From: Candidatus Enterousia sp.
Lineage (GTDB): Bacteria; Pseudomonadota; Alphaproteobacteria; Rs-D84
Direction of reading: 5' to 3'
DNA: 64,000 nt
NCBI GenBank assembly: GCA_045606425.1
Contig: JAZURV010000004.1
Span: forward strand, 46,353 to 110,352
In this document: positions 1,477-53,691 of the stretch, in pieces
Layout of the letters: the number at the start of each line of letters is the position of its first letter
Position numbering within the stretch: position 1 is the first letter of the stretch
Translations under genes and position numbers: made by a program
Notes under the pieces: generated by a model
Told to the model about the DNA's origin: nothing
The model's input: only the letters and a program-made list of their open reading frames with translations
Database searches by the model: none

Positions 1477-1503
1477 GGCTTTTCTTCCTTTCTTTACCGT
1501 TCC

Positions 1504-5026: not shown

Positions 5027-5093
5027 AATAAATCCCTCTTTATGCCCCACATTATACCACAAAATCGACTAAAATACAAACAGAATCTCTGTA

Positions 5094-9195: not shown

Positions 9196-9977
9196 TGTAA
9201 ATCGCCAATCTCTGGTCCCGCAACAAATGTACCTGTACCGGCGTTCGTGAAGAACTGACCAGATACAGTGTCATACATACCAACGACATTGTCGAACTGA
9301 CGGCGCGCCGGAATACCATTAAATACCAATGTACCAGACGAATTTCTTATCCAAACACTATACATCTGTGCAGAAACTTTTTGAATTGCGGAAACATTAC
9401 TATTATTCGCAAACAAATATAATTTCAGTCGATTATCACTAATACCACTTTGTTGAGTAAAGGTTTTTGTAACACCATCTATATTTAGCGTAACATTGTT
9501 ATTATTATCAACTATTGTATGGATTGTGTGTTTGACGTTATTAGCAACCTCCCCCAGATTTGAATAACTGCTAGATGTTGAATTATAAAAGCTTAATACG
9601 CCAGAGCCATAATAATAATAAGTTTGACGCAAATTATAACTAGCACTAGTATCTTGACACCCCATTAATGACACATCATTTGCACCGTTTGTTTTTTTAA
9701 AATTTATAAACACTTCGCTTGCCAGTTTATCCAATATGACGCCCGTATCGATATACTGTGTACCTGTACTTTCAATGTATTCCAGTTTGGTGTAGCCTGA
9801 TTCCCATCTGACAAAATGATAGCCTGTTTTTGCTGGGGCGGTTGGCGGAGTTATATTGTCACCAGATTGACAACTGGTTGTTGATACAACCTGTCCGTTC
9901 GCATACCAATTTATCGTGTGTGCAATTGCGCCGGCACATATAAACATCGCAAATAAAAACATCAAGATTTTTTTCAT
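9192..9977 (-). CDS. secreted protein: N-terminal B-repeat domain plus conserved ~190-aa C-terminal domain (LEYIESTGTQYIDTG ... GMYDTVSGQFFTNAGTGTF)
   Basis: Paralog of 44619..45410. Has the GYHFVRW B-repeat signature. ATGA overlap with the downstream gene. Confidence 0.7.
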   Translation of the reverse strand: MKKILMFLFAMFICAGAIAHTINWYANGQVVSTTSCQSGDNITPPTAPAKTGYHFVRWESGYTKLEYIESTGTQYIDTGVILDKLASEVFINFKKTNGANDVSLMGCQDTSASYNLRQTYYYYGSGVLSFYNSTSSSYSNLGEVANNVKHTIHTIVDNNNNVTLNIDGVTKTFTQQSGISDNRLKLYLFANNSNVSAIQKVSAQMYSVWIRNSSGTLVFNGIPARRQFDNVVGMYDTVSGQFFTNAGTGTFVAGPEIGDLQ

Positions 9978-10369: not shown

Positions 10370-11968
10370 TTAGTTCAGTGGGGCGCCCCAATGCTGTTGA
10401 ATACTGCGTTCTGCGTCCATCGGGCTGACCAAAACTTGCGGTGTCAAGATAACAACCAAAACTTCACGCGATGCGGCGGTTTCGCGCGAACCAGACAATG
10501 CCATAAAGTCTGCGTCGCCAAGGCCATATCTGGTATCATCATTCTTTTGTTTTTCAAACCCAGACACAACTAACATTTGACCAGATTCCATGATGACTTC
10601 CTGCATGAATGAACGTTCTTCAACCTCTGGCAATTGCAGTGTGACTGCACCAATTGTTTGTGTTGACATTTTCAACAATTCGCGCACAGACATTTTGAAC
10701 AACAGCAATATTTTCCCGTTTTCCAAAACATTTGGCAATAATTGCATTGAAAAACCTGTTTCCAAATCGTCTTGGTCAACCGTACTGGATTCAACAGTTG
10801 TAAATGTACGCGATTCGAATCGTTTGATGTAACCTGTTGATTTTGTGTTTGTCACAGGTGCGACACGATTATTACGCGTCGTGACGCCAACATTTGTGAC
10901 CAACGATACCTTGCCCTGCTTTGCCAATGCCTCTATCAGCGCATTGGACCCCGCCAGACGCGACATAGACCCGTTACGAATTTGGTCTTCGGTATATGTG
11001 CCGGCAATCCCTGTTGCCGCTTCGGCTACCTTGTTAGACAACACTGCGATATTCATTGACGAAGCCTCTGTCGATGCCAAATTGTTCTTTGGGTTTGCAA
11101 CAATGTTCAACCCAGACGCAGAATTTATCGCTGCCGCCAGATTCAACCCGAACGCCGATTCGTTTGACAAAGACACCTGTAATACCTTCACATCTATCGT
11201 CACCAATTGTGACAATCTTTTGTTTTGTTTTGTGATATATTCGCCAACACGATTCAGTACAGATGGCGACGCAGTCACAGTAATTGTCCCCAAACTGCGT
11301 GACACTGTAAATTGAGCATTCTTAGAATTATTTATAATAGAATTTATGGTTGCTTCGACTTCGTCCCATTCTTTCAGTGTAGATTCCAACGAAACCTGGT
11401 TTCCTGAATCAGTTTGCACAGACGACTGATACGACACATCTGTCCCCAGCGCATATAATGTATAAGTACGCGTTTCTGTTTCATAGAAAACAATTGAATC
11501 TTTGTCATAATACCACAACAAATCCAAATCTGTCGCAATTTGTGACAGCAATCCCGACAATTTACCAGTATATGCAACATCAACTGTCTTTCTTAATTTT
11601 TCAGCATCGACCTGGCTGTCGATTTTCACAGGGATACCAGTTATTGAATTTATATCGTTCGCCAACACCTGCAAAGTGACTGGTTCGTTTAACAAAATAG
11701 TCACCCCCGTATCGGTTTCGAATTTTGATGGCAAATTATTTTTGTGTTCCAACAAAGTGGATTTGTTTCCCAACCAAACACCTTCGGACATGGAAACAGT
11801 GTCACTGCTGGTGACCTTGGCCGGTGGATTCTTTGCCATTTCGAATGCTTCGTATGCATTGACAAAGTTTTTATCAACCGTTGCAGACACCTTGGCTGAT
11901 TCTTTCAATGTGCACCCAGTCAGTGCAACAATCAAGCCTATTAAACAGATATTAAAACGAATTTTCAT
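10370..11968 (-). CDS. secretin-family outer-membrane lipoprotein, PilN (type IVb pilus / R64)-like
   Basis: Lipobox LIVALTGC. C-terminal secretin domain: LLPNVLENGKILL..LPEVEERSFMQEVIMESGQMLVVSGF..REVLVVILTPQVL. Confidence 0.7.
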   Translation of the reverse strand: MKIRFNICLIGLIVALTGCTLKESAKVSATVDKNFVNAYEAFEMAKNPPAKVTSSDTVSMSEGVWLGNKSTLLEHKNNLPSKFETDTGVTILLNEPVTLQVLANDINSITGIPVKIDSQVDAEKLRKTVDVAYTGKLSGLLSQIATDLDLLWYYDKDSIVFYETETRTYTLYALGTDVSYQSSVQTDSGNQVSLESTLKEWDEVEATINSIINNSKNAQFTVSRSLGTITVTASPSVLNRVGEYITKQNKRLSQLVTIDVKVLQVSLSNESAFGLNLAAAINSASGLNIVANPKNNLASTEASSMNIAVLSNKVAEAATGIAGTYTEDQIRNGSMSRLAGSNALIEALAKQGKVSLVTNVGVTTRNNRVAPVTNTKSTGYIKRFESRTFTTVESSTVDQDDLETGFSMQLLPNVLENGKILLLFKMSVRELLKMSTQTIGAVTLQLPEVEERSFMQEVIMESGQMLVVSGFEKQKNDDTRYGLGDADFMALSGSRETAASREVLVVILTPQVLVSPMDAERSIQQHWGAPLN

Positions 11969-11998
11969 ATTTGTTCCCTCGTCCTTAAAAAAATTAAA

Positions 11999-12886
11999 TT
12001 ATTCTTCTGTGGTTGAAACAACCAAAACACGATTTCCCTTGTAAAACTTTGCATACGGGACAGGTGTTGCGCGTCCAAAATTGCGCACCAATGCCGACGC
12101 CACATCAACAAAGCGTCCCTTGAATACCGCGCTGGCCTCTATTGGATATTCACGCGAAGTTGTCCACACTAAATCCCAACCTTCTTTGTCACACCAAGAC
12201 TGCAAAACCTGACGCAAAGTTTGACCGTTTGCAACAACCCACGAACGAACCTGGTCTTGAACCTTTGCCCCGGCTTCTTCATCAGTGTATTCGTTTACTG
12301 CAACCTCTGTATCCGCGGCATCAGATTTATTGCATGACGCTTCGGCACTGAACCCAGCCTTTTGCGCGAACATGGCATAATCATCTGCGCCCTGATTACA
12401 ATTTTTACGACCACTGCGCGACATAGCCAGAACACTGCCACCATCATCTTCCATCATTTCACGGCGCATCAGTGGCATTTCCGCGTTATTTGCACATTCA
12501 TAATCAAAACCAGCAGGAATCTGAATGCCATTAGAAATGTTTGGACCACCACTCCAACCCGTGCCATTTGTGATAATATTATTTTCAATACGCAACCCAT
12601 TACCAGTTTTTGCAACAACCATCGCATCGTTTTTCTTGCAGCCTAATTCGCCGCACGCGATTTCAACATCAGCGTCAGTCCCCGCCAATGGCCACACAGG
12701 AACATCCTGTTGTACAACTGTGTTTTCTTCGTATTCGTATTCTGGGGATTCGATTTCTTCTGTATATTCTTCTTCGCCAGAATCATAAAAAACCTCAGAA
12801 GTTGTAATCTGTGGAATTCTTTGTGCAGCCCCAGCAACGCCAACCAGGCCTGCAACCGCCATAAACACGCATAATTTGTGGAACAT
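11999..12886 (-). CDS. TcpQ/PilL-like domain protein (secretin-associated)
   Basis: Signal peptide. C-terminal region W.VANGQTLRQVLQSWCDKEGWDLVW...FKGRFVDVASALVRNF...AKFYKGNRVLVV resembles the TcpQ domain. Confidence 0.6.
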   Translation of the reverse strand: MFHKLCVFMAVAGLVGVAGAAQRIPQITTSEVFYDSGEEEYTEEIESPEYEYEENTVVQQDVPVWPLAGTDADVEIACGELGCKKNDAMVVAKTGNGLRIENNIITNGTGWSGGPNISNGIQIPAGFDYECANNAEMPLMRREMMEDDGGSVLAMSRSGRKNCNQGADDYAMFAQKAGFSAEASCNKSDAADTEVAVNEYTDEEAGAKVQDQVRSWVVANGQTLRQVLQSWCDKEGWDLVWTTSREYPIEASAVFKGRFVDVASALVRNFGRATPVPYAKFYKGNRVLVVSTTEE

Positions 12887-29283: not shown

Positions 29284-29359
29284 TGGTGGACGCACAGGGA
29301 CTCGAACCCTGGACCCACTGATTAAGAGTCAGTTGCTCTACCAACTGAGCTATGCATCC
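29284..29359 (-). tRNA. tRNA-Lys (CTT), CCA encoded
   Basis: Hand-folded: acceptor GGATGCA/TGCGTCC, anticodon loop CTCTTAA, T-arm CAGGG-TTCGAGT-CCCTG. Confidence 0.9.
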
Positions 29360-29518: not shown

Positions 29519-30061
29519 ATGAAAACAAAAACTTCACTTATCTTGGCGTCGCTTTGCGGTGTCACACTTTTAACCGCTGGCTGCAGTTCATCTTGTCCGA
29601 CTGGTTCACACACAAAATACGAACATCAGCACAAAAAACACGACAAAAAACAAAAAAAGGCGGAACCTGTCGTTTTTCAACAAAACTATGGTTCCAGTGA
29701 TGTAGATAATGTCCACGCAAAAATGTTCACCCGTTCAGTCAATGGTGGCACATCAGAAATGGGTTATATAAAATTTGACGAAACAGACGACGGTCTGAAA
29801 ATGAATGTAGATTTAATAGATTTGCGTCCAGGCAAAACATACACCGCCCAGGTTTACCAATGTTGGTCATGCAACGAAAGCGTTTGCTGTAATACAGAAG
29901 CGATGAATATAGATTTGCCACAAATCAAAATATCTGAAACTGGCCGCCTGCAACAGTCATACATTATTCGCGGTTTAACCGCCAGCCAATTAAACAACGC
30001 CAAATTAGTATTGACGCGTGACGGCGGATACAAAGCTGCGTGGGGTCAATTAAATCAGTAA
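29519..30061 (+). CDS. lipoprotein with degenerate Cu/Zn-superoxide-dismutase-like fold
   Basis: Lipobox LLTAGC. MGYIKFDETDDGLKMNVDLIDLRPGKTY..CWSC aligns by eye to the SodC core, but the metal-binding His positions are replaced. Confidence 0.4.
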   Translation: MKTKTSLILASLCGVTLLTAGCSSSCPTGSHTKYEHQHKKHDKKQKKAEPVVFQQNYGSSDVDNVHAKMFTRSVNGGTSEMGYIKFDETDDGLKMNVDLIDLRPGKTYTAQVYQCWSCNESVCCNTEAMNIDLPQIKISETGRLQQSYIIRGLTASQLNNAKLVLTRDGGYKAAWGQLNQ

Positions 30062-30074
30062 TTTTTGATTTACA

Positions 30075-30110
30075 AAAAACAGGCACCTTTCCGGTGCCTG
30101 TTGTTTTTTT
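30075..30110. terminator. bidirectional intrinsic terminator
   Basis: AGGCACC-tttcc-GGTGCCT flanked by A-run and T-run, between convergent genes. Confidence 0.7.
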
Positions 30111-31059
30111 ATTTTAATAAAAGAATACTTTTAGTCTCTTTATCAAACCACACATCCTGTGCACCACCATGATTTGCCCCACCAATAATAGATTTGTTTC
30201 CAGTAAAAACCCCCATTATATTACCTTCATCATCAAATATACCACCACCAGAATTTCCTTTCCATACTTGACAATTTTTATCTTTACCATTACTAGAATA
30301 TTCACAATATGACACTTTTAACACATCACCATTTTCAAAAAATTCGTTATAATAAGAATTTTCATTATTACTTAAATACTGCAAAAAATAACTAACAAGC
30401 GGAAAATCTACCCAAACACCATTTTCATAAAATCCCAGCATCTTTTCTTTTCCTGTTGCTTCAACACCCACTTTTTCTTTTAAATATTTAATATACTTTT
30501 CTTTAAACGACTGTATTTCTTTGTCGCTCATGATTTTAAGCGCACCATAGCCAATCACTCTGGCGTCATAATCAAGCGTGAATGGACCAACTCCGAATTT
30601 GTGCTTATTACTAATATTTACCGAATTTAATTCTTTTTCTGAGATTGTATAAAAGGTCCAATCACCAGAATAATTTTGAAAACCACGTTTTATAGTAACA
30701 CCATTCACTACCTGCTTTTCCTCATAAAAATCCCCTACTTCTTTTTTATTTGCTTCAAATATTTTTCCATCTTGTGATTCTGATTTTATTTTATCCACAG
30801 GAGCATTTAAATCATCGATAACACAATGCTTAGCTGTATATAAATATAACTTACCGTCCTTTTTAACAATTGTTCCTGTGCAACGTTTATTTTTATTGTA
30901 TACCATAACTACTGCATTATACGGTTTTTGTTTCTTTTGCTGATCGGTTACATAACAACGTTTATCCACAGTATATTCAGACGGATTTGTACACGCATCC
31001 TTTGCCAAAGATGGTGACAGGAACAAAAAGAATAATAAAGACACAAATATTTTTTTCAT
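30109..31059 (-). CDS. secreted trypsin-like serine protease (S1B/V8-like), copy 2
   Basis: Signal peptide. PYNAVVMV..TGTIV..LYTAKHC (His), DWTFY (Asp), GNSGGGIFD (Ser). ATGA overlap with the upstream gene. Confidence 0.75.
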   Translation of the reverse strand: MKKIFVSLLFFLFLSPSLAKDACTNPSEYTVDKRCYVTDQQKKQKPYNAVVMVYNKNKRCTGTIVKKDGKLYLYTAKHCVIDDLNAPVDKIKSESQDGKIFEANKKEVGDFYEEKQVVNGVTIKRGFQNYSGDWTFYTISEKELNSVNISNKHKFGVGPFTLDYDARVIGYGALKIMSDKEIQSFKEKYIKYLKEKVGVEATGKEKMLGFYENGVWVDFPLVSYFLQYLSNNENSYYNEFFENGDVLKVSYCEYSSNGKDKNCQVWKGNSGGGIFDDEGNIMGVFTGNKSIIGGANHGGAQDVWFDKETKSILLLK

Positions 31060-31958
31060 CTTTTTTTATTTTTATACCCTTTCACGCCTTCTATCCATCC
31101 ACTTAACGATTCATAATAATATTCCGGTTTTATTCCATTTGAAGATGCATCTCTTTCTTGCCCTATAGCAGGTCTTGATACAGAACATAAAATTCCAACT
31201 ATCTCGTTGCTATCAATATCTATCAGTGCCGAACCAGAAAGCCCTGGGGCGCTAGGACAACTTGTATGAATCTCGGAATCTATACTTGTAATTCTACATC
31301 CAGTACGCACTTTCATATTATGACTATCACCAAATATGCACATAAAGCTATCAGTAGGACAATCTACACAATTTGCTTTTTTGTCCACAGAACATGCATG
31401 ATTTCTTTTCAAACTAATTTCTATATCTGCCATCGCTTCATAAGCATTACTTCCTGTGATTCTACCATTTTTTCGCAACCAATCAGTATATAACTGCTTT
31501 ATTATTTTCAATTCATTATTAGATAATGGTTTTAAACTATCGTAACCAACAACCATTAAATTACTTGATTGCCTTGTATTGGCAGCAACTTTTAACACTT
31601 TCCCAGAAAAAGCATCTGGATTAACTATCCATGCAAAATCATGTTCATCTTTATTATCTTGCAAATATTGTCCAACCATACCAGAGTGTTTTTTCCCATC
31701 CGAGGTATAATAATCTATCATTTTTTCTGATCCGGTATTATCAACTACATGTCTACAAGTTAAAATTATATCTTCAGATACAAAAGTTCCTGTACCTGGG
31801 CTTCCGTTATCTTCAATCCTGACCACAGTATTATATGGGAACAAAGATTTCTCTTCTTGTGTAACATATCTACGCGAATCTCCACCATAACCAACCATAT
31901 CACCCAAACAAAAACAAGGAAAAAACATAATAAAAAAAGATATATATTTTTTTATCAT
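31056..31958 (-). CDS. secreted trypsin-like serine protease (S1B/V8-like), copy 1
   Basis: Signal peptide. PYNTVVRI..GTGTFV..ILTCRHV (His), DFAWI (Asp), GLSGSALID (Ser). ATGA overlap with the upstream A-family gene. Confidence 0.75.
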   Translation of the reverse strand: MIKKYISFFIMFFPCFCLGDMVGYGGDSRRYVTQEEKSLFPYNTVVRIEDNGSPGTGTFVSEDIILTCRHVVDNTGSEKMIDYYTSDGKKHSGMVGQYLQDNKDEHDFAWIVNPDAFSGKVLKVAANTRQSSNLMVVGYDSLKPLSNNELKIIKQLYTDWLRKNGRITGSNAYEAMADIEISLKRNHACSVDKKANCVDCPTDSFMCIFGDSHNMKVRTGCRITSIDSEIHTSCPSAPGLSGSALIDIDSNEIVGILCSVSRPAIGQERDASSNGIKPEYYYESLSGWIEGVKGYKNKKR

Positions 31959-32905
31959 TTTAAAACCTCTTCACAACGCTGTGCAGATTTCATCAATTTT
32001 TTTGTTAATGTTATCAACGAGATATTGAAACCTGTTTCTGCGGCTCCTGTTGCTATGTTTGTACCCGCCATTATATTTGCAGTTGTATTTAACGCCTGTC
32101 CTTTCTTCTTGTCTTTTTCGCTTAAATTCATCCTGTTTTCCATATTTGTATATTTATCAGAGTTTGCAGCGGCACTGGTTACCGTCCCAACAACACCAAC
32201 AGCCGTTCCTGCTATAGAAGTCCCCATAACGACTTTCATTCGATTTTCTATTTTTTCAATATCTTTTGTGTTTATTTGATTACACCACGTACGAACTTTA
32301 TCTAACTGTTTAACAACAACACTCTCATTTGGGTTTACGCCTGCCCTTTTTAATTCTAAACTTGTATCAGAAACAGTTTTTATGACCGCATTACAAGCCG
32401 ACACATGCTGAACAAGTTCTGATTGTTTTGTATTCAATCCAGACATTATTGCTGATGCTAAATTTGTACCGATTGTCCCCGCCAACAAGCCCGTCCGCCA
32501 ATTACCCAATTTCTTTGATTTATCAATTTTCTTTTGCAATTCAGCAATTTGTGCCATTGGTTGTAAAACATTTGTAAAAAATTGTTCGTCACTCATAGCT
32601 TCTACACCTTCGGCCGTACACCCACCAGACGCACAAATTTGTTCAACCAATTCATCTATTTCTTTGTCTTCTTGTGATTTTTTAATTCCGGCGTACAATG
32701 CCCCACCTGCCGCAACCGTTCCAACAGCAGTAACTGCTGTATTCGCTTTTGAAATATTTGCCACTTTTCCTATTTCATCAGAAATCCCTGAACATGCGAT
32801 TTGTGCAGCTTCAAAAACTTGTTCGGCTTGTTTTACTACCCCCATATCATCAGCAATTGATGTAAAAGGAATAAGGAATAAAAAGAATATATATAATTTT
32901 TTCAT
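31955..32905 (-). CDS. A-family secreted/membrane-associated protein, paralog 3
   Basis: Signal peptide MKKLYIFFLFLIPFTSIA plus the shared family motifs (NTAVTAVGTVAAGG, GNWRTGLLAG, VGTVTSAAANSDK, C-terminal C..VLK). Confidence 0.7.
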   Translation of the reverse strand: MKKLYIFFLFLIPFTSIADDMGVVKQAEQVFEAAQIACSGISDEIGKVANISKANTAVTAVGTVAAGGALYAGIKKSQEDKEIDELVEQICASGGCTAEGVEAMSDEQFFTNVLQPMAQIAELQKKIDKSKKLGNWRTGLLAGTIGTNLASAIMSGLNTKQSELVQHVSACNAVIKTVSDTSLELKRAGVNPNESVVVKQLDKVRTWCNQINTKDIEKIENRMKVVMGTSIAGTAVGVVGTVTSAAANSDKYTNMENRMNLSEKDKKKGQALNTTANIMAGTNIATGAAETGFNISLITLTKKLMKSAQRCEEVLK

Positions 32906-32919
32906 TTACGTACCGTTTT

Positions 32920-34380
32920 TCAATTCTTTAAATATTTTGTTGGGTTATATGCTTTTGTACCCTTACGAATTTCAAAATGCAGTTGTGGTTGGTCAACCTT
33001 GCCTGTTTTGCCGACGCGTCCGATTTGTCCCCCAACATTGACACGACTTCCGCGTTTAACCGACATAGAATCCAAATGCGCATAAATTGTCATCCAACCA
33101 TCGGCATGCTGAATAATAATCAAATTTCCCATACCCTTTACTTCATTCCCAGCATACGCAACAACACCGTTTTCTGCCGCCTTTACCGCGGTTCCCAACC
33201 CGGCAGCAATATTTATACCATCATTAAATAACCCATTGTTTTTTGCACCATACGCAGACAAAATCCGTCCACGAACAGGCCACGAAAATTTAGACCCAGA
33301 CCGCGCCGCAATTTGTGGCAATTGTTTTTTTGGATTTGACGATATCTTCTTTGTGTTTGTTGTTTTATTTGTCGCAACCTTAGGCTGCAGCACAGTTTTT
33401 GATGTTGTTTTGGCAGACGCAACAGATTTGATTTCTTTTGTTTTTGGCGCCTGTGCAACAGTTTTCTTTGCCGGTGTAATTTTATTAGTTGTTGATTTTA
33501 CTGGCACCTGCTTCACATCAGACACAGAAACAGTTTTAACCTCTTTCAATTTTGGAACCTTGATTTTTTGACCAACTGCCAAAGTAAACGGACTGGACAA
33601 TTTATTCATAACTGCCAAATCATTGACTGGAATTTCATATTTACGCGACAGAGAATACAAAGTGTCACCCTTTGCCACAATGATTTCTTGCAAATCAACG
33701 CGCGTTGTTGCATTTGGTTTAACAGGTTCTGGAACCACAGTTTTTTCAGATTTTATTTCGGCAACTTTTTCAACCGATATGACATTTGGCACATCTTTTT
33801 TTACAGTGACCGAACCACTTCGCGTTGTCAATTTTTGTCCGATGGATAAAGTATACGGTTCATGCAAATTATTTATCTCTGCCAATTCGGACATGCTGAT
33901 TCCGTTTTTGCGCGCCAAAGAATATAATGTATCACCCCTTTGCACGACAATTATTCCAGCGTCGGTTTTTTGCACTTCTTTCTTTTCTGCGACTTCGTCA
34001 ACCACAGTATTTCCACCATACAGCGGAACGACAATATAGTCATCAGGAATTTCAGAAACCACTAATTCTTCTGTTTTTGCATCTGGTATTTCTTCATCTT
34101 TTGATTCAGGAACCAAAACATAATCATCAACACTGGCATACAGAACATAATCATCTATGTTTGCAGAACCATACAATTCTGGTGACGCATAGACCCCGTA
34201 ATCGGTCACCGCAGAATTATATATTTCAGGCTGAATATTTGGGTCTGCCAACAACGCCGGATATCTGTCTTCGATAAACATACCGATACTGTCAGGAATC
34301 GACGAAATTTTTGGTTGCAAATCACATGCGCACAACACCAGCGCACACATAACAGTCGCTTTAAATATATTTTTCCACAT
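32920..34380 (-). CDS. LysM-domain / M23 peptidase lipoprotein (NlpD-like)
   Basis: Lipobox VLCAC from the ATG at 34380, two LysM repeats (GDTLYSL.RK..I), and a C-terminal M23 domain (IIIQHADGW.T.YAHL, PQLHFEIRK). Confidence 0.85.
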   Translation of the reverse strand: MWKNIFKATVMCALVLCACDLQPKISSIPDSIGMFIEDRYPALLADPNIQPEIYNSAVTDYGVYASPELYGSANIDDYVLYASVDDYVLVPESKDEEIPDAKTEELVVSEIPDDYIVVPLYGGNTVVDEVAEKKEVQKTDAGIIVVQRGDTLYSLARKNGISMSELAEINNLHEPYTLSIGQKLTTRSGSVTVKKDVPNVISVEKVAEIKSEKTVVPEPVKPNATTRVDLQEIIVAKGDTLYSLSRKYEIPVNDLAVMNKLSSPFTLAVGQKIKVPKLKEVKTVSVSDVKQVPVKSTTNKITPAKKTVAQAPKTKEIKSVASAKTTSKTVLQPKVATNKTTNTKKISSNPKKQLPQIAARSGSKFSWPVRGRILSAYGAKNNGLFNDGINIAAGLGTAVKAAENGVVAYAGNEVKGMGNLIIIQHADGWMTIYAHLDSMSVKRGSRVNVGGQIGRVGKTGKVDQPQLHFEIRKGTKAYNPTKYLKN

Positions 34381-34435
34381 CTTCACATTCTGAATTATAT
34401 CATAAAATCGGTGTAAAATAAAATACTTATACAAA

Positions 34436-35137
34436 CTAGTCACGCATAAATAACAAACTGATTTCGAACAAAACCAACATTGGCAAAGCCAACAAAATCT
34501 GGGACATAATATCGGGCGGTGTCAACATCGCACCCAAAACAAACGCGCCAATTATCACATACCGACGGCTTTTAATCGCGCTTTCTTTGGATAATAAACC
34601 TGCCCTGTTCAACCCAACCAGCACCAATGGCAATTGAAACACCAAACCAAAAACCTTTAACAACCCAATTGAAAAAGCCAAATATCCCTTTATCGATGGC
34701 ATCAGAACCGTTGGAACAGATACCGCTTCGTTTATTTCAACAAAAAATCCAAACACCACCGGAAACAAGACATAGAACGCAAACGCCGCCCCCAATACGA
34801 ACAACAACGGCGACAACACAAATATAGGTACTAAAAATTGCTTTTCATTTTTATGTAATCCCGGTGCGATATATGCCCAAATATTCCACAACAACACCGG
34901 CACAGTTATAATCAGTGCGACCAATGTAGCCAATGAAAACTGTATCATTAAACCATCTGTTATTTCTGTGTACAACAACGCCGCATTATCCCACACATTT
35001 ATCAGGGGCGTGGTCAAAAACACCTCTGTCCAATCAGATATAACCCAACCAAAAACGAACGCTATGATAAACACCACCGCAGTCCACAGCATACGACGAC
35101 GCAATTCTGCAAAATGTTGCATCAGTGTCATTTTCAT
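34436..35137 (-). CDS. tatC: twin-arginine translocase subunit TatC
   Basis: HF.ELRRR N-terminus and 6-TM TatC pattern. Confidence 0.9.
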   Translation of the reverse strand: MKMTLMQHFAELRRRMLWTAVVFIIAFVFGWVISDWTEVFLTTPLINVWDNAALLYTEITDGLMIQFSLATLVALIITVPVLLWNIWAYIAPGLHKNEKQFLVPIFVLSPLLFVLGAAFAFYVLFPVVFGFFVEINEAVSVPTVLMPSIKGYLAFSIGLLKVFGLVFQLPLVLVGLNRAGLLSKESAIKSRRYVIIGAFVLGAMLTPPDIMSQILLALPMLVLFEISLLFMRD

Positions 35138-35408: not shown

Positions 35409-36023
35409 TTAGTCATAAAAATCATCGCCTTCATTAGTAGATGCAGTCTTGTGACGCGATAATTGAAAATAGTTTTTTCCAAAATCAGTTTTTGTTTTCA
35501 AATCATTAAACACCACATCTGTTTTCGCAGATGTTGCATCAACCACAGACCAAGATTTTAATTTTACGGGCTTTTTATCAAATACAACATCCATGTGCCC
35601 CAGGCCTTCTTGGTCGCGCAGATTCATTTTTAATGTAAAAGTGTTTTTATCAGACGCTGTTTCGTAAACATTTATATCTGCATTTTGTAAATCTATATTT
35701 TTACGAACCAGGATACCTGCCGGCGTACTGGTCAATGGGACAGTTGTAATTTGGTCCAATGATTTATCATAAAAATATAAATCTTTACCATCAGAAATAA
35801 GTTGTATTGGCGCGTTTTTATAATCTAATCTGACACGACCCGGGCGCAACATTGAAAAAGTTCCGTTTTGTGTTTTACCATTTGCAGTCTGTGTAAATCC
35901 ACCATTTAATCCGGTTATAGAATTCAGATACTTTTCTGCATCACGAACCAAATTTTTGTCCACAGCCGCATTTGCGACAGATTCAACAAACAACACACAC
36001 AAAGCCAGTAATATTTTTTTCAT
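35409..36023 (-). CDS. lolA: outer-membrane lipoprotein carrier LolA
   Basis: F.Q......G.FSMLRPGRVRLDY..P....ISDGKDLYFYD pattern. Confidence 0.8.
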   Translation of the reverse strand: MKKILLALCVLFVESVANAAVDKNLVRDAEKYLNSITGLNGGFTQTANGKTQNGTFSMLRPGRVRLDYKNAPIQLISDGKDLYFYDKSLDQITTVPLTSTPAGILVRKNIDLQNADINVYETASDKNTFTLKMNLRDQEGLGHMDVVFDKKPVKLKSWSVVDATSAKTDVVFNDLKTKTDFGKNYFQLSRHKTASTNEGDDFYD

Positions 36024-36026
36024 TTC

Positions 36027-36977
36027 CTACATTCCCTTGAAAGCGTTTATTATTTTTGTACGAACATTTTCCAGACTGTCTTCAACCACAGCCCCCGCCG
36101 CACACAAATGTCCGCCACCACCAAAAGATTCAGCAATCTGATTTATCGGCGTTTGACGCGAACGAATTGAAATGCCTATGCGACCTTCTTTTTGTTCTTT
36201 TAACAAAACCACATACTGCACACCACGAATTTGCCCCAACAAAGACAAAACTATTTCACCGCGTCCGTCCAGTTTTTTATAGTCTTCGTGATTTAATGTC
36301 GCAATTGCCAGACGGCCACGCATTAAAAATTCTGCTTCTGACACTACTTTTGCTTCTACCAAGACAGTTTTCTTGTCTTTGTTTTTCAACAAATTTGTCA
36401 GGCGTGAAACATCTGCCCCGGCGTCCACCAACCTGGCAGAATCTTTAAATACATCACTGTGTTTAACAAATCTGAAATGACCCGTATCAGTAATTATAGC
36501 CAACATCAACAAATCAACGACATCACTATCGACATTGAAATTTGCCACCTTTACCATATCAAAAATTATCTGGGCTGTGGCGGCCTTTTCTTCGTTGTCA
36601 AAGCATAAATTTCCAACCAAATCGTCATTAAAGTGATGATCAAATTCAATCACAAAATCGGCAGAATTCACATATTTTTCAATTTCACCCAAATGCTTTC
36701 TGGTTCCATAATCGACCAATATATACAAATCAAATTTTGCGTTATCTGGAATATTTTTGTGAAACACAGCATCGGCACGCATCGGCACATTATCTAAATC
36801 GCGCGGAACATTTCCATCGTATATGACCGTGGCTTGTTTACCGAAATTTAATTCTATTATTCTTTTCAGCGCCAATGCAGAACAAAGTGCATCACCATCT
36901 AAATTTTTATGCCCAGATATAGCGATTGTTTTCGCATTTTGTACTTTTTCTATAAAAACCCGTGTTTTTTCCATCAT
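36027..36977 (-). CDS. nrnA: DHH/DHHA1 phosphoesterase (NrnA-like oligoribonuclease/pAp phosphatase)
   Basis: GHKNLDGDAL, FDHH and GGGGH motifs. Confidence 0.8.
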   Translation of the reverse strand: MMEKTRVFIEKVQNAKTIAISGHKNLDGDALCSALALKRIIELNFGKQATVIYDGNVPRDLDNVPMRADAVFHKNIPDNAKFDLYILVDYGTRKHLGEIEKYVNSADFVIEFDHHFNDDLVGNLCFDNEEKAATAQIIFDMVKVANFNVDSDVVDLLMLAIITDTGHFRFVKHSDVFKDSARLVDAGADVSRLTNLLKNKDKKTVLVEAKVVSEAEFLMRGRLAIATLNHEDYKKLDGRGEIVLSLLGQIRGVQYVVLLKEQKEGRIGISIRSRQTPINQIAESFGGGGHLCAAGAVVEDSLENVRTKIINAFKGM

Positions 36978-38728
36978 ATTGCAATATCTTCCAGTATAAA
37001 TTGTGCGTTTACGCGACCATTATAGTCATTTTCTTTCAATTTGCCCAACATCATCATTGTAGTATTTGTATTCGCATCGTCCAGTAAAAAATCACCAACC
37101 GGGGTTCCAACCAAATTGAATCCAACAAATGGCAACTGGTTACCATTACTGCAACGAACCATGCCGCGCACATGCGCCCCATTTCCCATAACTGTCACAT
37201 ATTTCAACACGGCCCCACGCAACACCAGTGTTGGTTCAGGATTACTTTGACCAAATGGCGCCAGTTCAGATAATTTTTCAACCAATCGCATATCTGCACT
37301 GCCCGCGTCAATTTGAGCATCGACAAAAATTTCGGGACTGGGTTTATTTCCACCCAACTGGTCATAGACCGATTTTTCCAGAAAATCGCAAAAATCCTGT
37401 TCCCGGTCCGCGTTTAAAGTAAAACCCGCTGCCGCGGCATGCCCGCCGCCTTCTGATAAAATTCCCAAAGCCAACGCTTCATGAATAATTTTACCCAAAT
37501 CGATTTCTGGTATCGAACGACCGGAACCATTTATGGTGCCGTCCCCGCGCGTTGCAACACATGTTGGTAAATTATATTTATCTTTTAACCGACCCGCAAT
37601 AATTCCCATCACACCACCGTGCCAGTTATCACCACAAACGAACAAACTGCATTTACCGTTCCTGCAACATCTGTCTGCGATATCTGCAGCGTCCACCATA
37701 ATTGCGTTTTGTATATCGATTCGTTCCTGATTCATTCGGTGCAATTTATTTGCTAAATCATTTGCAATCAACGGGTTGTCCGTCAACAGCAATTCCAGCG
37801 CCGGCGCTGCAGAATCCAATCGACCCGCTGCGTTCAAACGGGGACCCAGCGCAAAACCAACCGCATACACAGATGGTTTTTTAATCCCTGCCAAATCCAT
37901 CAGTGTTCGCAATCCCAGATTTTGCCGCAATCCCATAACCTTTAATCCTGTTGAAACAAAAGCGCGATTTAATCCAATCAACGGCATCGTATCGCAAATT
38001 GTCCCCAGCGCAACAAAATCCATGTAATTTAATAAATTTATTTGTGGTCTGGACGCATTAAAAAATCCCCTGTTTTTCAATTCGCGATTTAAAGAAACCA
38101 ATGTCAAAAACGCGACACCAACCCCCGCCAGAAATGACAAATCCGATGTATCATCGATTCGTTTTGGGTTCACAACTGCGTCTGCATTCGGCAATACCGA
38201 ATCTGGCGAATGATGGTCAGTTATAACAACTTTTAATCCTAATTCTTTGGCACGCGCAACCTCTGCATTACCACTGATACCGCAATCAACAGTTATCATC
38301 AACGAAACGCCACTTTTCGCGATTTGTTCAATCGCCGCAACATTTAAACCATATCCTTCGCCTTCCCTGGTTGGCAGATGCCACGAAACATCAACACCCA
38401 ACTTTTGTAAATACTTCACAAAAATCGCAGTAGAAGTAATTCCATCAACATCATAATCCCCGTATATTGCGATTTTTTCATTATTGCATATAGCATCTGC
38501 AATAACGCGTGTCGCGATATCCATATCTTTCAATACAGACGGGTCTTGCATATACTCTTTAATTGAAGGATTCAAAAATCTGGCCACGGCATCATCACCG
38601 ACGATACCACGCGTCAACAATATATGTTTTACTAAATTTTTTGTATCGTTTGAATCCGTTCCTGGATTATAATCATCCGACACAGTCCATGCCTTACCCA
38701 GCATGGATTTTTCTACTATCTTACGCAC
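36974..38728 (-). CDS. recJ: single-stranded-DNA-specific exonuclease RecJ
   Basis: IYGDYDVDGITS, TVDCG, ITDHH and GGGHAAAAG motifs. Confidence 0.95.
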   Translation of the reverse strand: MRKIVEKSMLGKAWTVSDDYNPGTDSNDTKNLVKHILLTRGIVGDDAVARFLNPSIKEYMQDPSVLKDMDIATRVIADAICNNEKIAIYGDYDVDGITSTAIFVKYLQKLGVDVSWHLPTREGEGYGLNVAAIEQIAKSGVSLMITVDCGISGNAEVARAKELGLKVVITDHHSPDSVLPNADAVVNPKRIDDTSDLSFLAGVGVAFLTLVSLNRELKNRGFFNASRPQINLLNYMDFVALGTICDTMPLIGLNRAFVSTGLKVMGLRQNLGLRTLMDLAGIKKPSVYAVGFALGPRLNAAGRLDSAAPALELLLTDNPLIANDLANKLHRMNQERIDIQNAIMVDAADIADRCCRNGKCSLFVCGDNWHGGVMGIIAGRLKDKYNLPTCVATRGDGTINGSGRSIPEIDLGKIIHEALALGILSEGGGHAAAAGFTLNADREQDFCDFLEKSVYDQLGGNKPSPEIFVDAQIDAGSADMRLVEKLSELAPFGQSNPEPTLVLRGAVLKYVTVMGNGAHVRGMVRCSNGNQLPFVGFNLVGTPVGDFLLDDANTNTTMMMLGKLKENDYNGRVNAQFILEDIAI

Positions 38729-38771: not shown

Positions 38772-40436
38772 TTATTCAAATAGCAATGGCATGATTCCAT
38801 CTAATATTGCCCCGGCTGTTGGCACCGCATTCCATGCCGCAGTTTTCCAACCTCCGCTTTCTTTTGTTCCCTGGGGTTCGTCCAGCATAATCAGTATTAT
38901 ATATTGCGGGGCTGACACTGGGAAAATACCGGTAAAGACCGTCATATTTCTGCTTTTATCTGCGCGTCTGTCGGCACCGCGTTTTTCCGCAGTTCCTGTT
39001 TTTCCGCCAATTTCTATACCCTGCACACGGGCCTTCTTAGCCGTGGTTTCTTCGGCTATATGGAACATTATATTTCGCAATTTCGCAGATATTTCTGAAT
39101 TTAACACGCGTTCCCCGCGCACCGCACCTATGTTTCTTTTCAATAATGTTGGATAAATATAAATTCCACCATTTGTCATCGCATTTACCCCCAACAGCAA
39201 ATGCATAGGCGTCACCGCAATACCGTGCCCGAACGACGCAGTTGCGCGTTCTGTCGGTCCCCATGTTTTATAGGTTATTGCCCGTTCGGTTTTTCCGAAT
39301 TCCAATTGCAATGCCCTGTCAAAATTCAGCCGTTCAAAAAATTCTTTCTGGGCGCCATCTGGCAAATCCAGTGCGATACGGGCACTGCCAACATTACAGG
39401 AATGCAACATTATTTCTGGGGCTTTCAACGTTTTGTGACCACCTTTTTTCACAACATCGCGTTTAAAAGACGACACATCATCGATTGGTTTTTTCATGGC
39501 GGGGCGTCCAAACTTGTCATAAATCATCAGCGGTTCGTCAACCCGATATTCTTTGTTTTGCAAACCGTTTTCATATGCCAACGCAGTATTAAATATCTTG
39601 AAAATCGACCCCATTTCAAAATTATCACGCATCAGTTTAAAACGACGTGTATTCACCGGTATAGAATTTATATTATTCGGGTCAAAATCAGGAATTTGTA
39701 CCATCGCTATCATTTCACCAGTACTGGAATTCATCAACATACCCATCGCACCCTTGGCATGATATTTATTCATGGCGATGGTCAATTGTTCATGGAATAT
39801 ATTTTGCACGCGCGAATCGATAGACAATCGCAGTGGCGATTTATTTTCGCGCAAATATTTATCGTATGTCATTTCGATGCCTTCCAGACCTTCATCTTTA
39901 CCGGAAAAACCTATAACATGCGCAAAGACATTTTTTTGTGGATAGCGTCGCTGAGTAAATTGTTCTATTTCGAAACAGTCGTATTTTTTATGCGCCAAAC
40001 GTATTTGTTTCATCTGGTCTTCATTAGCGTTCTTTTTTATATAAACCCCACGCCGACCAGTTCTGATTAAATTCAGCGCATCTTCTACACTGTAATTCAT
40101 TGGTGCGATTTCATGGATAACATTTGCAACATCATTTACATCTTTTTCTTTGACCCGTGGCGGGAACAGTTTAATATTCCCAGATTTTACACTTTTTGCC
40201 AAAACGACACCGTTTCTGTCAATTATATCTGCACGGCTTTCAATTTGGACCCCGTTTCCATTGTGCCGTCTGTAATCATTACTTTGTAATCCCAACTGCA
40301 GGGTGCGTGCAATAAATATCACAAACAACACAGAAAACAGACCCTTAACCCAGCGCAAACGCGCCGCGCTTTCGTGATTAAAAATGGCGCCCTTGTATTC
40401 ATGTGGTAAAATATCTTTGCCTATATTAAAGCGCAT
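38772..40436 (-). CDS. ftsI: peptidoglycan D,D-transpeptidase FtsI (PBP3)
   Basis: SIFK (SxxK), SCN (SxN) and KTGT motifs. Start set at the MRFNIGK Met, which overlaps the ftsL-like gene end. Confidence 0.9.
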   Translation of the reverse strand: MRFNIGKDILPHEYKGAIFNHESAARLRWVKGLFSVLFVIFIARTLQLGLQSNDYRRHNGNGVQIESRADIIDRNGVVLAKSVKSGNIKLFPPRVKEKDVNDVANVIHEIAPMNYSVEDALNLIRTGRRGVYIKKNANEDQMKQIRLAHKKYDCFEIEQFTQRRYPQKNVFAHVIGFSGKDEGLEGIEMTYDKYLRENKSPLRLSIDSRVQNIFHEQLTIAMNKYHAKGAMGMLMNSSTGEMIAMVQIPDFDPNNINSIPVNTRRFKLMRDNFEMGSIFKIFNTALAYENGLQNKEYRVDEPLMIYDKFGRPAMKKPIDDVSSFKRDVVKKGGHKTLKAPEIMLHSCNVGSARIALDLPDGAQKEFFERLNFDRALQLEFGKTERAITYKTWGPTERATASFGHGIAVTPMHLLLGVNAMTNGGIYIYPTLLKRNIGAVRGERVLNSEISAKLRNIMFHIAEETTAKKARVQGIEIGGKTGTAEKRGADRRADKSRNMTVFTGIFPVSAPQYIILIMLDEPQGTKESGGWKTAAWNAVPTAGAILDGIMPLLFE

Positions 40437-40728
40437 TTTTTTCACCCGCCATTGGTATATCATCGATATGTACAGTCTTGCTGTACGACACAATTTCTGC
40501 GTGCGGATTTACCCCAACCACAGAACCACGCAACAAATCAGCCGACGACAATGCAGAAAATATAGTTTTTGCCACATCATATTCATGCTGGGTATTTTCC
40601 ATACTGCGTCGCACCATATTCAAATTAGAATTCTGTACACGATAACAAACCTGTAAAAAAACAGTCAAAAAAATCACACCGATTCCCATGATTGTGCCTA
40701 TACTAAACATTTTTTCATCATCGCGCAT
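40426..40728 (-). CDS. FtsL-like cell-division membrane protein
   Basis: 100 aa, single TM, positioned immediately upstream of ftsI. Confidence 0.5.
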   Translation of the reverse strand: MRDDEKMFSIGTIMGIGVIFLTVFLQVCYRVQNSNLNMVRRSMENTQHEYDVAKTIFSALSSADLLRGSVVGVNPHAEIVSYSKTVHIDDIPMAGEKNAL

Positions 40729-51381: not shown

Positions 51382-53691
51382 TTGATGTGTCAAAGCCTTC
51401 TTTTTTATGATATAATAACAACCATGGCAATAAAGTTCAACATTTTATCAAACAGTGATTCTGGCAAGGGTTTAAAGATTTTTGAATCCAGCGCATACAA
51501 AGAACACGAACAAACACCCATGGCGCGAAAATTCTGGGAATTGCGCTGGGATGTTGGCATTTGGTTGGTTTGTGCACTGATGTTTGGTTTGTCTTTTGCG
51601 ATTGAACATGTCTGGCGATATGGATGGGGCCCGGCCAGTCAACACTGGGTGTCTATCTATATGAAAAATTTATTTATGACATTTGGGCTGTCCGCAATTG
51701 CAGAGGTTCCATATTGGATTATGCGAACGGTTCAACACCCTGATTTTGCGTCAATTACACCATTGTTGCCGATATTGGGGTATTTCCTTTTTGCAGACGA
51801 TACATTTAAATCTGAATTTAACCCGCACAGCAAAGACAGATATGACGAAAAATCTGCCCGCAAGGCAACCGCAGACGACATCAAAAAAATGGGTGCGGAC
51901 TACACGAACAAAGAGGGTTTATTCCATGGCTTTATGATGGTATTGGGGTATTTTAAATACAAAGGCAAACAAACCCCGCTTATGTTTGACGAAAGTTTGT
52001 CTGCGTTATGTTTGGCGCCTCCGGGAACTGGTAAAACCGAAGGGGTTGTTATTCCAACAATTCTTGATTGCGATAATGTGTCAATGATTATCAACGACCC
52101 GAAACCAGAATTGAAACAAAAAACATCTGCATATCGTGCAACGGTTGGTCCGGTGTTTATTATGAATTGGGCGGGTCAGGACGACCCAGAACGCGGGATA
52201 TATTATCCGTCATGGAATCCGTTATCCCCCGACCATGTTCCATACAACCCTGAACAGCGCGATTTGTATATTGATTCAATATGTAAAGTATTGGTTCCAG
52301 ATGCCAAATCTGGTAACGCCGACCCACACTGGGCAAATACTGGACGCGCAGGATTATCTGGTTTGGTGAATTTTATCGTGTCAAAGGTTGAACGTGCCAA
52401 GGCTGATGATTATTTCTATGCCCGTATAAACAACGGAACATTAAACAGCGACGATGCTGCATTATTGGGCGATTATTATTTATCCATGATGAACGACCCG
52501 AACGCGTATGCGGCATATTCCCTGTTACAGAAAGGCGAACTAAGCACATCGAATTATGTCCATGTTGGCACATGGGCAAATATCCCCGACGCATGGCGCG
52601 GTAAAGAGGCATCTTTTTCCATGATATTGGATTGGCTGACATCGTCCCAGGTTGCCATTGCCGAAGAAATGGAAGAACGCAGACGTCAGGGCGACCAAAT
52701 GGTTGTTATGGCAGACCCAATGAAAGATTTGTTATTAAACGCGGTTGATGAAGCGCGCAGATATTCATACGCAAACCGTGCCGTATCAGAATTGACCCAA
52801 TTGGCAAACACACCTGATAAAGAACGCGGTTCTATTCTTTCCACAATGATGGAAGGTCTGGCGATATTCCGTAATGCCGCGGTTCGCAACCGAACATCTC
52901 ATTCTGATTTTCATTTTAAAGACCTGCGTGGAATACGCGACCCGCGCGACGGAAAAATCAAACCAGTCAGTGTGTACCTGTCCATCAACATGGTTGATGC
53001 CCAGGCTTTAAATCCAATCACTGCAATCTTTATCGAATTGATGTCCAGTTATTTGTTGGCACACAACACGAACCAGGTTGTTGATGGCGAAAAAATGGGG
53101 CCATATCCGGTATTATTTGTTTTGGACGAAATGCCAAAAATGCAAAAACTGGACGCAGTTATCCAGGGGCCAGACCTGGGGCGCGGACAAAAAGTGTCTT
53201 ATTTAATTATCGGTCAAGATATTCACCAAATCAGCGAAAGATACGGGAACGATGCGGCATCTACAATTATTTCAACGACCGCGGCAAAAATCGTTCTGCG
53301 TCAAAACGACCCTGAAACCGCACGCATGTTTGCACAAATGATTGGTATGAAAATGACCAAGAAAGTCGAAGTCAAAGATGGCAAAGAAATTGAAACACCG
53401 AAAGAAGAACCCCTTTATACCGAATTCGACATTATGAAATTAGGCAAAGGAAAACAATTGGTTATTTACCAGGGCTGGTACCATCGCCCGATTGAGGCAG
53501 AACAAGTGTTCCAGTTTTATAACAAAACGCCTGTTGAACAAAAACTACACCAAAAAGTCATGATGGGCGAAGCGTCACCGTTACCAGAATTTTTAATTCC
53601 TATGCATCACGCAATTATGGGGTATTCGGGTACACCACGGGTTTTAAATCCAAACACCAATGAAATAAAAATATTGGAACCGCTGCATTAA
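51382..53691 (+). CDS. type IV secretion coupling protein (VirD4/TraG family), orphan
   Basis: N-terminal TM helices, Walker A APPGTGKTEG, Walker B VLFVLDEMP, and GQDIHQISERYG. The start may be the ATG at 51424. Confidence 0.8.
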   Translation: MMCQSLLFYDIITTMAIKFNILSNSDSGKGLKIFESSAYKEHEQTPMARKFWELRWDVGIWLVCALMFGLSFAIEHVWRYGWGPASQHWVSIYMKNLFMTFGLSAIAEVPYWIMRTVQHPDFASITPLLPILGYFLFADDTFKSEFNPHSKDRYDEKSARKATADDIKKMGADYTNKEGLFHGFMMVLGYFKYKGKQTPLMFDESLSALCLAPPGTGKTEGVVIPTILDCDNVSMIINDPKPELKQKTSAYRATVGPVFIMNWAGQDDPERGIYYPSWNPLSPDHVPYNPEQRDLYIDSICKVLVPDAKSGNADPHWANTGRAGLSGLVNFIVSKVERAKADDYFYARINNGTLNSDDAALLGDYYLSMMNDPNAYAAYSLLQKGELSTSNYVHVGTWANIPDAWRGKEASFSMILDWLTSSQVAIAEEMEERRRQGDQMVVMADPMKDLLLNAVDEARRYSYANRAVSELTQLANTPDKERGSILSTMMEGLAIFRNAAVRNRTSHSDFHFKDLRGIRDPRDGKIKPVSVYLSINMVDAQALNPITAIFIELMSSYLLAHNTNQVVDGEKMGPYPVLFVLDEMPKMQKLDAVIQGPDLGRGQKVSYLIIGQDIHQISERYGNDAASTIISTTAAKIVLRQNDPETARMFAQMIGMKMTKKVEVKDGKEIETPKEEPLYTEFDIMKLGKGKQLVIYQGWYHRPIEAEQVFQFYNKTPVEQKLHQKVMMGEASPLPEFLIPMHHAIMGYSGTPRVLNPNTNEIKILEPLH

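Follow-up and report, generated by a model that had tools for sequence, protein, structure and literature searches.

An A-family glycine-zipper protein encoded with two predicted S1B-like serine proteases in Candidatus Enterousia: a possible envelope partner of exported enzymes

What does a conserved protein without a named family do when its gene runs, again and again, into genes for secreted enzymes? The question is raised by a locus in a 64,000-nt stretch of DNA from the uncultured gut bacterium Candidatus Enterousia sp. (assembly GCA_045606425.1, contig JAZURV010000004.1, positions 46,353 to 110,352), here called the window, which alone holds three modules headed by the paralogous genes A1, A2 and A3. 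Each of these genes overlaps the start of a signal-peptide gene, and in the A3 module two such genes follow, P1 and P2, which encode predicted secreted S1B-like serine proteases. A3-P1-P2 would represent one copy of a lineage-specific two-part module of Candidatus Enterousia and other Rs-D84 gut Alphaproteobacteria. We tentatively propose, with a probability of about 0.4, that the A protein is an envelope-embedded partner exporting or presenting its co-expressed, Sec-exported cargo, a mechanism that we infer by analogy with known partner systems.

The A3 module and its immediate flanks are arranged as follows:

32920..34443, minus strand: LysM/M23 peptidase gene (Pfam Peptidase_M23 8e-31, LysM 1e-29)
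31955..32905, minus strand: A3, A-family protein of 316 aa with a Sec signal peptide
31056..31958, minus strand: P1, predicted S1B-like serine protease of 300 aa with a Sec-type N-terminus
30109..31059, minus strand: P2, predicted protease of a second S1B-like subfamily, 316 aa, with a Sec-type N-terminus
30078..30102, both strands: bidirectional intrinsic terminator with a 10-bp stem, 6 G-C pairs and T runs on both strands

The open reading frame (ORF) calls agree with the coordinates and features given to the A3-P1-P2 unit in an initial annotation made from the letters of this DNA. At each junction the sequence is ATGA ('gtt tta aaA TGA taaaa' and 'aaa agA TGA aaaaa'), which bears out the two successive stop/start overlaps that it had described between the third A paralog and two signal-peptide proteins. 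It had also put the end of a LysM/M23 peptidase gene 14 nt upstream of the unit; the spacer, from the end of that gene at 32920 to the start of A3 at 32905, is indeed 14 nt, and Pfam supports both M23 and LysM. No terminator-like site separates M23, A3, P1 and P2 from one another. The terminator, a strong one, lies 6 nt past the P2 stop and is shared with the convergent gene 29519..30061. Synteny of M23 and A3 is kept in at least 10 other genomes.

Both downstream proteins match Trypsin_2 above its cut-off of 27.6 bits (P1, 1e-11, 46.2 bits; P2, 4.5e-8, 34.4 bits), and Trypsin (PF00089) is above cut-off in both as well. The motifs quoted earlier for intact His/Asp/Ser triads in an S1B context are all present in the translations: the triad of P1 consists of H70 (31749-31751), D107 (31638-31640) and S241 (31236-31238), with GLSGS around the Ser, and that of P2 of H78 (30826-30828), D133 (30661-30663) and S270 (30250-30252), with GNSGG around the Ser. 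Of the 54 proteases next to A that were aligned from other genomes, 52 retain His-Asp-Ser, and D27, R29 and the pair C221/C234 (P1 numbering) are invariant in all. The PDB sequences nearest to P1 and P2, matched at weak E values (3e-4 to 0.15), all belong to S1B: Staphylococcus Jep, glutamyl endopeptidases and exfoliative toxin B. The comparison with the chymotrypsin double-barrel fold uses the model of P1 alone of the two proteases, an AlphaFold model built from a 60-sequence alignment with a predicted local distance difference test score (pLDDT) of 88 and a predicted template-modelling score (pTM) of 0.85. Its top 22 Foldseek matches are exfoliative toxins A/C, the Glu-endopeptidase of B. 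intermedius, SplA/B/D/E and Esp, V8 protease stands at ranks 26 and 35, and the S1B matches have E values of 4e-10 to 5e-8. P1 is thus modelled as a chymotrypsin double barrel nearest to the exfoliative toxin/Glu-endopeptidase/Spl/Esp proteins, and in this model a helical hairpin (aa 147-187) is inserted after the first barrel and a long helix stands at the C-terminus. P1 and P2 are only 24% identical, and in other species the two have separate orthologs; they therefore represent two old subfamilies and not a recent duplication. The A-adjacent proteases together form a new S1B-like clade, members of an already known kind of peptidase.

The other two A genes of the window are coupled to cargo of a different kind:

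7561..8472, minus strand: A2, A-family paralog, 303 aa as called
6137..7564, minus strand: A2 cargo, ORF of 481 aa, 475 aa from the ATG, with an ATGA overlap at 7561-7564
493..1476, minus strand: A1, A-family paralog, 327 aa as called
1..493, minus strand: 5′ part of the A1 cargo gene, with a TAATG overlap at 491-495, a signal peptide and a leader-domain match; the gene runs off the window

The A2 cargo consists of a signal peptide, a leader domain of ~100 aa and a C-terminal YkuD-fold domain. YkuD passes its cut-off (36.7 vs 23.4 bits) and Tlde1_dom does not (19.6 vs 30.1 bits), and therefore the label 'toxin', which the initial annotation had given to the A2 module, is not established, although its statement that the same first gene is joined to different cargo stands: cargo in the window and in 80 related loci is chemically unrelated. 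A genome scan detects 272 A loci, and the locus comparisons described here cover these 80, all from Enterousia-like gut or rumen metagenome-assembled genomes (MAGs). They contain 83 A genes, 82 of which have enough downstream sequence to be judged. If an A gene is counted when the ORF directly after it runs in the same direction, has at least 120 aa and begins with what resembles a signal peptide, 70 of the 82 qualify; for seven of the remaining 12 there is an explanation, namely cargo cut off by the contig end, a protease ORF missed in calling, a gene broken by a frameshift or a protease upstream of A, and so ~77 of 82 A genes adjoin signal-peptide cargo.

All cargo proteins in the related loci carry signal peptides. 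The largest group, a majority, comprises S1B-like proteases, which occur after both A3-like and A2-like genes; the second comprises large proteins of 400-1425 aa related to the YkuD-like cargo of the window, and the third at least eight Cys-rich families without a Pfam match. At the syntenic A3 locus, A is 57-75% identical between species and the cargo set varies, from one to several P1- and/or P2-type proteases, with or without unknown families. A1/A2-type modules have no flanking genes in common between genomes, which suggests that A and its cargo move as an autonomous unit. Cargo after A1/A2-type genes shares the ~100-aa N-terminal leader domain (hhalign 96.9%, E 1.4e-10), and a hidden Markov model (HMM) of this domain detects the A1 cargo fragment, on which it was not trained, at 2.8e-6. 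The polymorphic-toxin layout, a conserved N-terminal trafficking-type domain with variable C-termini, is therefore seen in A1/A2-type cargo and not in the protease cargo; this is the usual layout where the N-terminus of a protein determines its secretion partner. Cargo classes also trade C-terminal modules: a domain of ~130 aa forms the C-terminus of a 294-aa leader-domain cargo, found after A2-type genes, and recurs as the C-terminal extension of 474-480-aa proteases, found after A3-like genes, which points to domain shuffling among cargo. Most partners of the A1/A2 clade are leader-domain cargo, those of the A3 clade proteases or Cys-rich proteins. Thus, the earlier suggestion that the role of A is independent of the activity of its partner agrees with the unrelated cargo but needs amending, since A is not wholly cargo-blind and its clades pair with different cargo. 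By contrast, its judgement that specific immunity is the less likely role is strengthened, because one A family precedes unrelated cargo and no immunity-like gene follows any module; in the window, P2 is followed by the terminator and the YkuD-like gene by a convergent, putative rpsT.

The A proteins themselves form a family of narrow distribution. A3 is 34% identical to the A2 ORF (7561..8556; E 2.7e-33) and 33% identical to the A1 ORF (493..1542; E 1.9e-29). A set of 5.8 billion proteins contains >960 homologs of A3 and >1,700 sequences matching an A1/A2 profile, all of them unnamed or 'hypothetical', and where an organism is given, it is an uncultured alphaproteobacterium or Candidatus Enterousia. 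When 1.84 billion representatives are searched exhaustively with a profile (E <=1e-3), only 457 clusters at 50% identity are recovered, which indicates that the family is sharply delimited. A3 is as conserved as housekeeping envelope genes and more so than its cargo. Plasmid and phage collections contain no match to A, and an origin of A from mobile elements was discarded on this ground. A match to the Pfam family P5CR_dimer, seen in 17 of 58 A members, was rejected as spurious, as it falls on the Gly/Ala-rich segment 1 described below. In the literature that was searched, neither the A family nor the rule that A precedes secreted enzymes was found, and work on Enterousia mentions only 'hypothetical membrane-bound proteins' (PMC12306168).

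The main features of A3 are the following:

32849..32905, minus strand: signal peptide, aa 1-19, MKKLYIFFLFLIPFTSIA/DD, with a site of the signal peptidase I (SPase-I) type and no lipobox
32684..32746, minus strand: segment 1, aa 54-74, charge-free and Gly/Ala/Thr-rich
32429..32494, minus strand: segment 2, aa 138-159, after an invariant GN(W)RTG motif
32159..32233, minus strand: segment 3, aa 225-249, with a glycine-zipper face
32039..32095, minus strand: segment 4, aa 271-289

The signal peptides of the three paralogs end in TSIA/DD (A3), TSFA/EV (A2) and CAYA/ES (A1), none of them with a lipobox. The four charge-free segments of the family, 19-26 residues each and rich in Gly/Ala/Thr/Ser, hold most of the invariant positions, and small residues recur in them every 3-4 positions to form glycine-zipper faces; in segment 3 of A3 the invariant small residues so spaced are S230, G233, G237, G240, S244 and A247. 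Segments 2 and 4 of A1/A2 consist mostly of Thr/Ser/Ala/Asn. Four Cys (C38, C171, C208 and C311 in A3) are invariant in 58 of 58 A sequences. A3 is predicted to be entirely helical with four long helices, and the stretch between its segments 1 and 2 is a predicted helical hairpin, whose tip bears C91-x4-C96 in 17 of 17 A3-type proteins and in this clade only; this CxxxxC suggests that both 'sides' of A are extracytoplasmic. In long homologs (521-708 aa) the hairpin is expanded to a coiled coil of 300-400 aa, and this expansion is all that these proteins add, so that the idea of a fused functional domain in them was dropped. Among the distant homologs with this insertion (P0339, P0370, P0379, P0382, P0384 and P0387), three (P0370, P0379 and P0387) have no N-terminal signal peptide as called, and could be truncated gene calls or use a different export route.

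From these features a working model can be sketched. A would be a Sec-exported, all-alpha protein with a core of four charge-free glycine-zipper helices, probably embedded in a membrane and oligomerizing, to which a disulfide-stapled helical domain and a coiled-coil hairpin of differing length are added. Sec-exported enzymes, here the two putative V8/Spl/exfoliative-toxin-like S1B proteases, would come from the downstream genes, which are coupled to A in translation. The place of A would be the cell envelope, with the outer membrane, in it or at it, as the most likely site; there it may bind its cargo physically, receiving it in the periplasm and moving or presenting it at the cell surface. 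Once released or displayed, the proteases and other cargo may have their targets in extracellular proteins or in partner or host cells. Candidatus Enterousia (order Rs-D84) is common in the guts of ruminants, horses, chickens and humans, its genomes are below 1 Mb and lack a respiratory chain and recognizable nutrient transporters (PMC12306168, PMC13196213), and it is thought to depend on partners (PMC12306168, PMC13196213); cargo acting outside the cell would fit a bacterium of <1 Mb without the usual transporters and biosynthesis. A bolder version, which we find doubtful, makes A the single-protein core of an undescribed envelope translocation or delivery system, in which an all-alpha glycine-zipper oligomer with a variable coiled-coil stalk would move Sec-exported S1B proteases, YkuD-like proteins and other mosaic proteins across or onto the outer membrane of these ultra-small bacteria and may deliver them to the partner cells on which they depend.

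Several results weigh against an export or presentation role. Pfam, NCBIfam and PDB sequence searches with A return no genuine relative, and for A as a transporter there is neither homology nor fold evidence. The AlphaFold model of A3, from a 58-sequence alignment, is poor (mean pLDDT 57) and is worst in the hydrophobic segments, and with this model Foldseek finds nothing in the PDB below E 0.03, only generic helical bundles, so that no fold is assigned to A. By crude Hessa sums the A segments reach +3.4 to +6, against -1.7 to +3.7 for the helices of TatC, which puts them at or past the least hydrophobic of these and makes their hydrophobicity borderline. The Lys+Arg counts on the two sides of A (12.0 vs 8.2) fit a four-helix topology in the inner membrane. 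A protein with a Sec signal peptide and hydrophobic helices would by default be an inner-membrane protein, and all-alpha outer-membrane translocators are, to our knowledge, rare. A secretin encoded in the window could export periplasmic proteins without A. The leader-domain HMM has no match in any protease cargo, ~5 of 82 A genes have no recognizable cargo, and although A is the first gene in the window and in most loci, as the initial annotation had it, in L002, L003 and L010 A is preceded by a protease gene, placed between it and M23.

The main competitor of the export or presentation model, on balance unlikely in our view, is that A stays in the inner membrane with its N- and C-terminus in the periplasm and four glycine-zipper spans between them, and that its disulfide-stapled periplasmic domain docks, retains or regulates the co-expressed periplasmic enzymes, or else that A channels in the peptides or muropeptides that they produce, in the manner of a polysaccharide utilization locus (PUL), where a transporter is combined with varying hydrolases. 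With four spans all four invariant Cys would lie on the side of the mature N-terminus, and Lys+Arg are enriched on the side opposite to them; the invariant Asn, Thr and Arg in or beside the segments are suggestive of a lined channel or of closely packed helices, and the A3 locus is a stable part of an envelope gene cluster (PBP, LolA, Tat, M23). This reading is attractive also because the lineage has no recognizable amino-acid or peptide transporters (PMC12306168, PMC13196213). However, the segments are only marginally hydrophobic, segments 2 and 4 of A1/A2 consist mostly of Thr/Ser/Ala/Asn, the hairpin-tip CxxxxC of A3-type proteins would come to lie in the reducing cytoplasm, and giant mosaic cargo with a leader domain fits secretion better than housekeeping periplasmic enzymes. 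A role as a released, membrane-inserting pore-former that delivers or potentiates the enzymes as a binary toxin, or as a surface glycine-zipper killing factor like CdzC/D of Caulobacter, seems distinctly improbable. The signal peptide, the long helices and the latent hydrophobic glycine-zipper segments, predicted at low confidence, would suit it, as would the presumed partner-dependent lifestyle of the organism (PMC12306168), and glycine-zipper proteins do kill by contact in another alphaproteobacterium (PMC5380434). MakA, AhlB and XaxB of the ClyA family stand among the non-significant Foldseek matches, but at E 0.17-0.86 and TM-scores <=0.25, from a low-confidence model, they carry no weight; moreover, A has four separate hydrophobic segments instead of one hairpin, and the 300-400-aa coiled coil that long homologs carry between segments 1 and 2 could not be passed through a target membrane. 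These segments are also the most conserved parts of a protein that evolves as slowly as housekeeping envelope proteins, which is unusual for toxins that bind a target, and no immunity gene is present.

Two further explanations have little in their favour. A general inhibitor or immunity protein that neutralizes the cargo in the periplasm of the producer could account for the tight translational coupling, which suggests a fixed stoichiometry, and for the lack of a separate immunity gene although the cargo must cross the producer's own periplasm. As a rule, however, an immunity gene comes after the toxin gene and varies together with it, whereas the A gene is upstream of its cargo and is more conserved than the cargo; a single conserved A family stands beside unrelated enzyme folds, and its invariant positions lie in hydrophobic glycine-zipper segments and not on a variable binding surface. 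Self-protection is thus highly improbable. That the adjacency reflects mere packing of unrelated envelope genes into an operon is scarcely credible: in its favour, overlapping genes are frequent in so compact a genome and A3 stands at the end of a long housekeeping operon; against it, A adjoins cargo in ~77 of 82 cases, the genomic contexts are many and different, and the window alone holds three paralogs. The observations fit export, display, activation and anchoring of the cargo alike, and it is by analogy that we favour export or presentation by an envelope-embedded A.

Even if A should turn out to be only an anchor or a regulator of enzymes, it would represent a new protein family, and its protease partners a new S1B-like clade, each with clear genomic rules. 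If it is a translocator, it would define a categorically new secretion route with an unusual all-helical architecture, and A and its cargo would then offer a defined system of two genes for reconstitution in E. coli, as achieved with MafA/MafB. As the module is present in multiple copies and takes a visible share of a small genome, it is a strong candidate for machinery by which the cell interacts with, or feeds on, other cells.

Upstream of the A3 module the LysM/M23 gene is the last of a co-directional run of envelope and housekeeping genes, in agreement with the earlier placing of the unit at the end of a tat/lolA/recJ/ftsI cluster:

38772..40493, minus strand: penicillin-binding protein (PBP) transpeptidase
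36974..38728, minus strand: RecJ
36027..36977, minus strand: DHH/DHHA1 protein
35409..36023, minus strand: LolA
34436..35137, minus strand: TatC
within the same cluster, co-directional: ORF of 88 aa in the TatA/B position, without a Pfam match

P1 and P2 lie in the most A+T-rich part of the window (30001..32000), with a G+C content of 0.32-0.33 vs ~0.40 overall, and a tRNA gene (29287..29359, minus strand) lies ~750 bp beyond the terminator of the module; the low G+C and the nearby tRNA gene may be signs of turnover or acquisition at the A3 locus.

At 10370..12886 (minus strand), about 2 kb upstream of the A2 module and co-directional with it, lies a secretin gene (PF00263 6e-13), preceded by a TcpQ-like gene (PF10671 8e-18); these two genes could encode an outer-membrane channel of a type IVb pilus, of competence or of a kind resembling the type II secretion system (T2SS). 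A conserved association of the secretin/TcpQ genes with A2 was considered and abandoned, as A2/A1-type modules elsewhere have no flanking genes in common with the window. Directly upstream of A2 are two overlapping signal-peptide ORFs (8713..9977, minus strand), one of 261 aa with weak matches to the Listeria-Bacteroides repeat (Flg_new) and one of 160 aa, Cys-rich, with a weak match to DUF7631. An ORF of 86 aa (5777..6037, plus strand), S20-like by eye, is convergent with the YkuD-like cargo gene and fills the gap where an immunity gene might be expected. A signal-peptide protein of 279 aa without a family match (4223..5062, minus strand) has the C-terminal glycine-zipper stretch GGIVASTVGGAGLGVGA, and L022 has a homolog of it, 58% identical, downstream of an A3-type module. 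The ORF 1596..2873 (minus strand), which separates A1 from a DprA-like gene, is DnaA-like by eye on its AAA+ motifs. On the plus strand, 51382..53691 encodes a type IV secretion coupling protein of the VirD4/TraG type (T4SS-DNA_transf, 2e-50), followed by a 404-aa ORF without a Pfam match and by an LpoB-like lipoprotein (54903..55508).

Some particulars of the related loci may be added. The ~130-aa domain shared between cargo classes is found at L011:6066-6950, L013:3833-4717, L043:7897-9321 and L055:7945-9387. Two Cys-rich secreted families without a Pfam match, of ~245 aa and ~300 aa, alternate with proteases in A3 modules and stand beside A3 orthologs in L001, L005, L007, L023-L029, L032, L053 and L054; they resemble A and the proteases in their signal peptides only. 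Co-cargo clusters 2 and 3 were considered as divergent A proteins or proteases and set aside, hhalign aligning their signal peptides only. At L018:7951-8940, in a MAG from horse gut, the gene after A3 is a homolog of the cluster-3 cargo broken into three frames, and is either a pseudogene or an assembly error. The protease gene upstream of A in L002, L003 and L010 (at about 5950-6990 in each) encodes a P2-like protein, and in L003 A is the last gene before a convergent neighbour.

Among known systems the closest in organization is MafA/MafB of Neisseria, in which MafA, an outer-membrane oligomer that is not a barrel, is encoded first and is needed to move MafB across the outer membrane, and the polymorphic MafB toxins carry a signal peptide and an N-terminal DUF1020, which specifies the secretion partner (PMC7738311). 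The A modules resemble it in having a conserved first gene for a putative envelope protein of ~34 kDa that is predicted not to be a beta-barrel, cargo in which a Sec signal peptide and a conserved N-terminal domain precede polymorphic C-termini, several paralogous modules in one genome and a partial cognate specificity between partner and cargo. They differ in that MafA is a lipoprotein of mixed alpha/beta structure, whereas A has no lipobox and is predicted to be all-alpha; in that Pfam scans find no DUF1020 in P1, P2, the YkuD-like cargo or 18 cargo proteins of related loci; and in that mafI-like immunity genes and spare toxin cassettes are absent and the protease cargo has no leader domain. 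Searches of Pfam, NCBIfam and the PDB reveal no similarity of A to MafA, a direct comparison with a MafA profile not being among them. Membership of A in the MafA/MafB system is not supported, given the absence of a lipobox, the all-alpha prediction and the lack of DUF1020 and of immunity genes. The pairs TpsB/TpsA and CdiB/CdiA likewise combine a partner with Sec-dependent cargo bearing an N-terminal recognition domain, but A is not an Omp85 beta-barrel, has no POTRA domain or Pfam match and is predicted to be helical, and its cargo lacks both the two-partner secretion (TPS) domain and beta-helix repeats.

Helical proteins offer other parallels. CdzC/CdzD of Caulobacter are, like A, alphaproteobacterial and rich in glycine zippers and, as A would be, associated with the envelope or surface, but they have 84-86 aa, type I export, leaders like those of repeats-in-toxin (RTX) proteins and an immunity gene (PMC5380434), whereas A has ~300 aa, a Sec signal peptide and coupling to enzymes, with no immunity gene. 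The alpha pore-forming toxins of the ClyA family (MakA, AhlB, XaxB/YaxB) share with A the long helical bundles of ~300-400 aa with hydrophobic segments; they differ in having one head or tongue in place of four such segments, and no gene for a second helical partner accompanies A. The cargo of the A3 module has the clearest known counterpart, the S1B peptidases (V8/GluV8, SplA-F, Esp, exfoliative toxins A/B and the glutamyl endopeptidase of Bacillus intermedius), with which P1 and P2 share the predicted fold, the His-Asp-Ser order and a Sec signal peptide with almost no propeptide, the mature N-terminus leading straight into D-x-R...PYN-x-VV. Unlike these enzymes, to which they are only 15-18% identical, P1 and P2 have an inserted helical hairpin of ~40 aa, end in a long helix and keep an invariant Cys pair close to the catalytic Ser, and are encoded behind an A-family gene.

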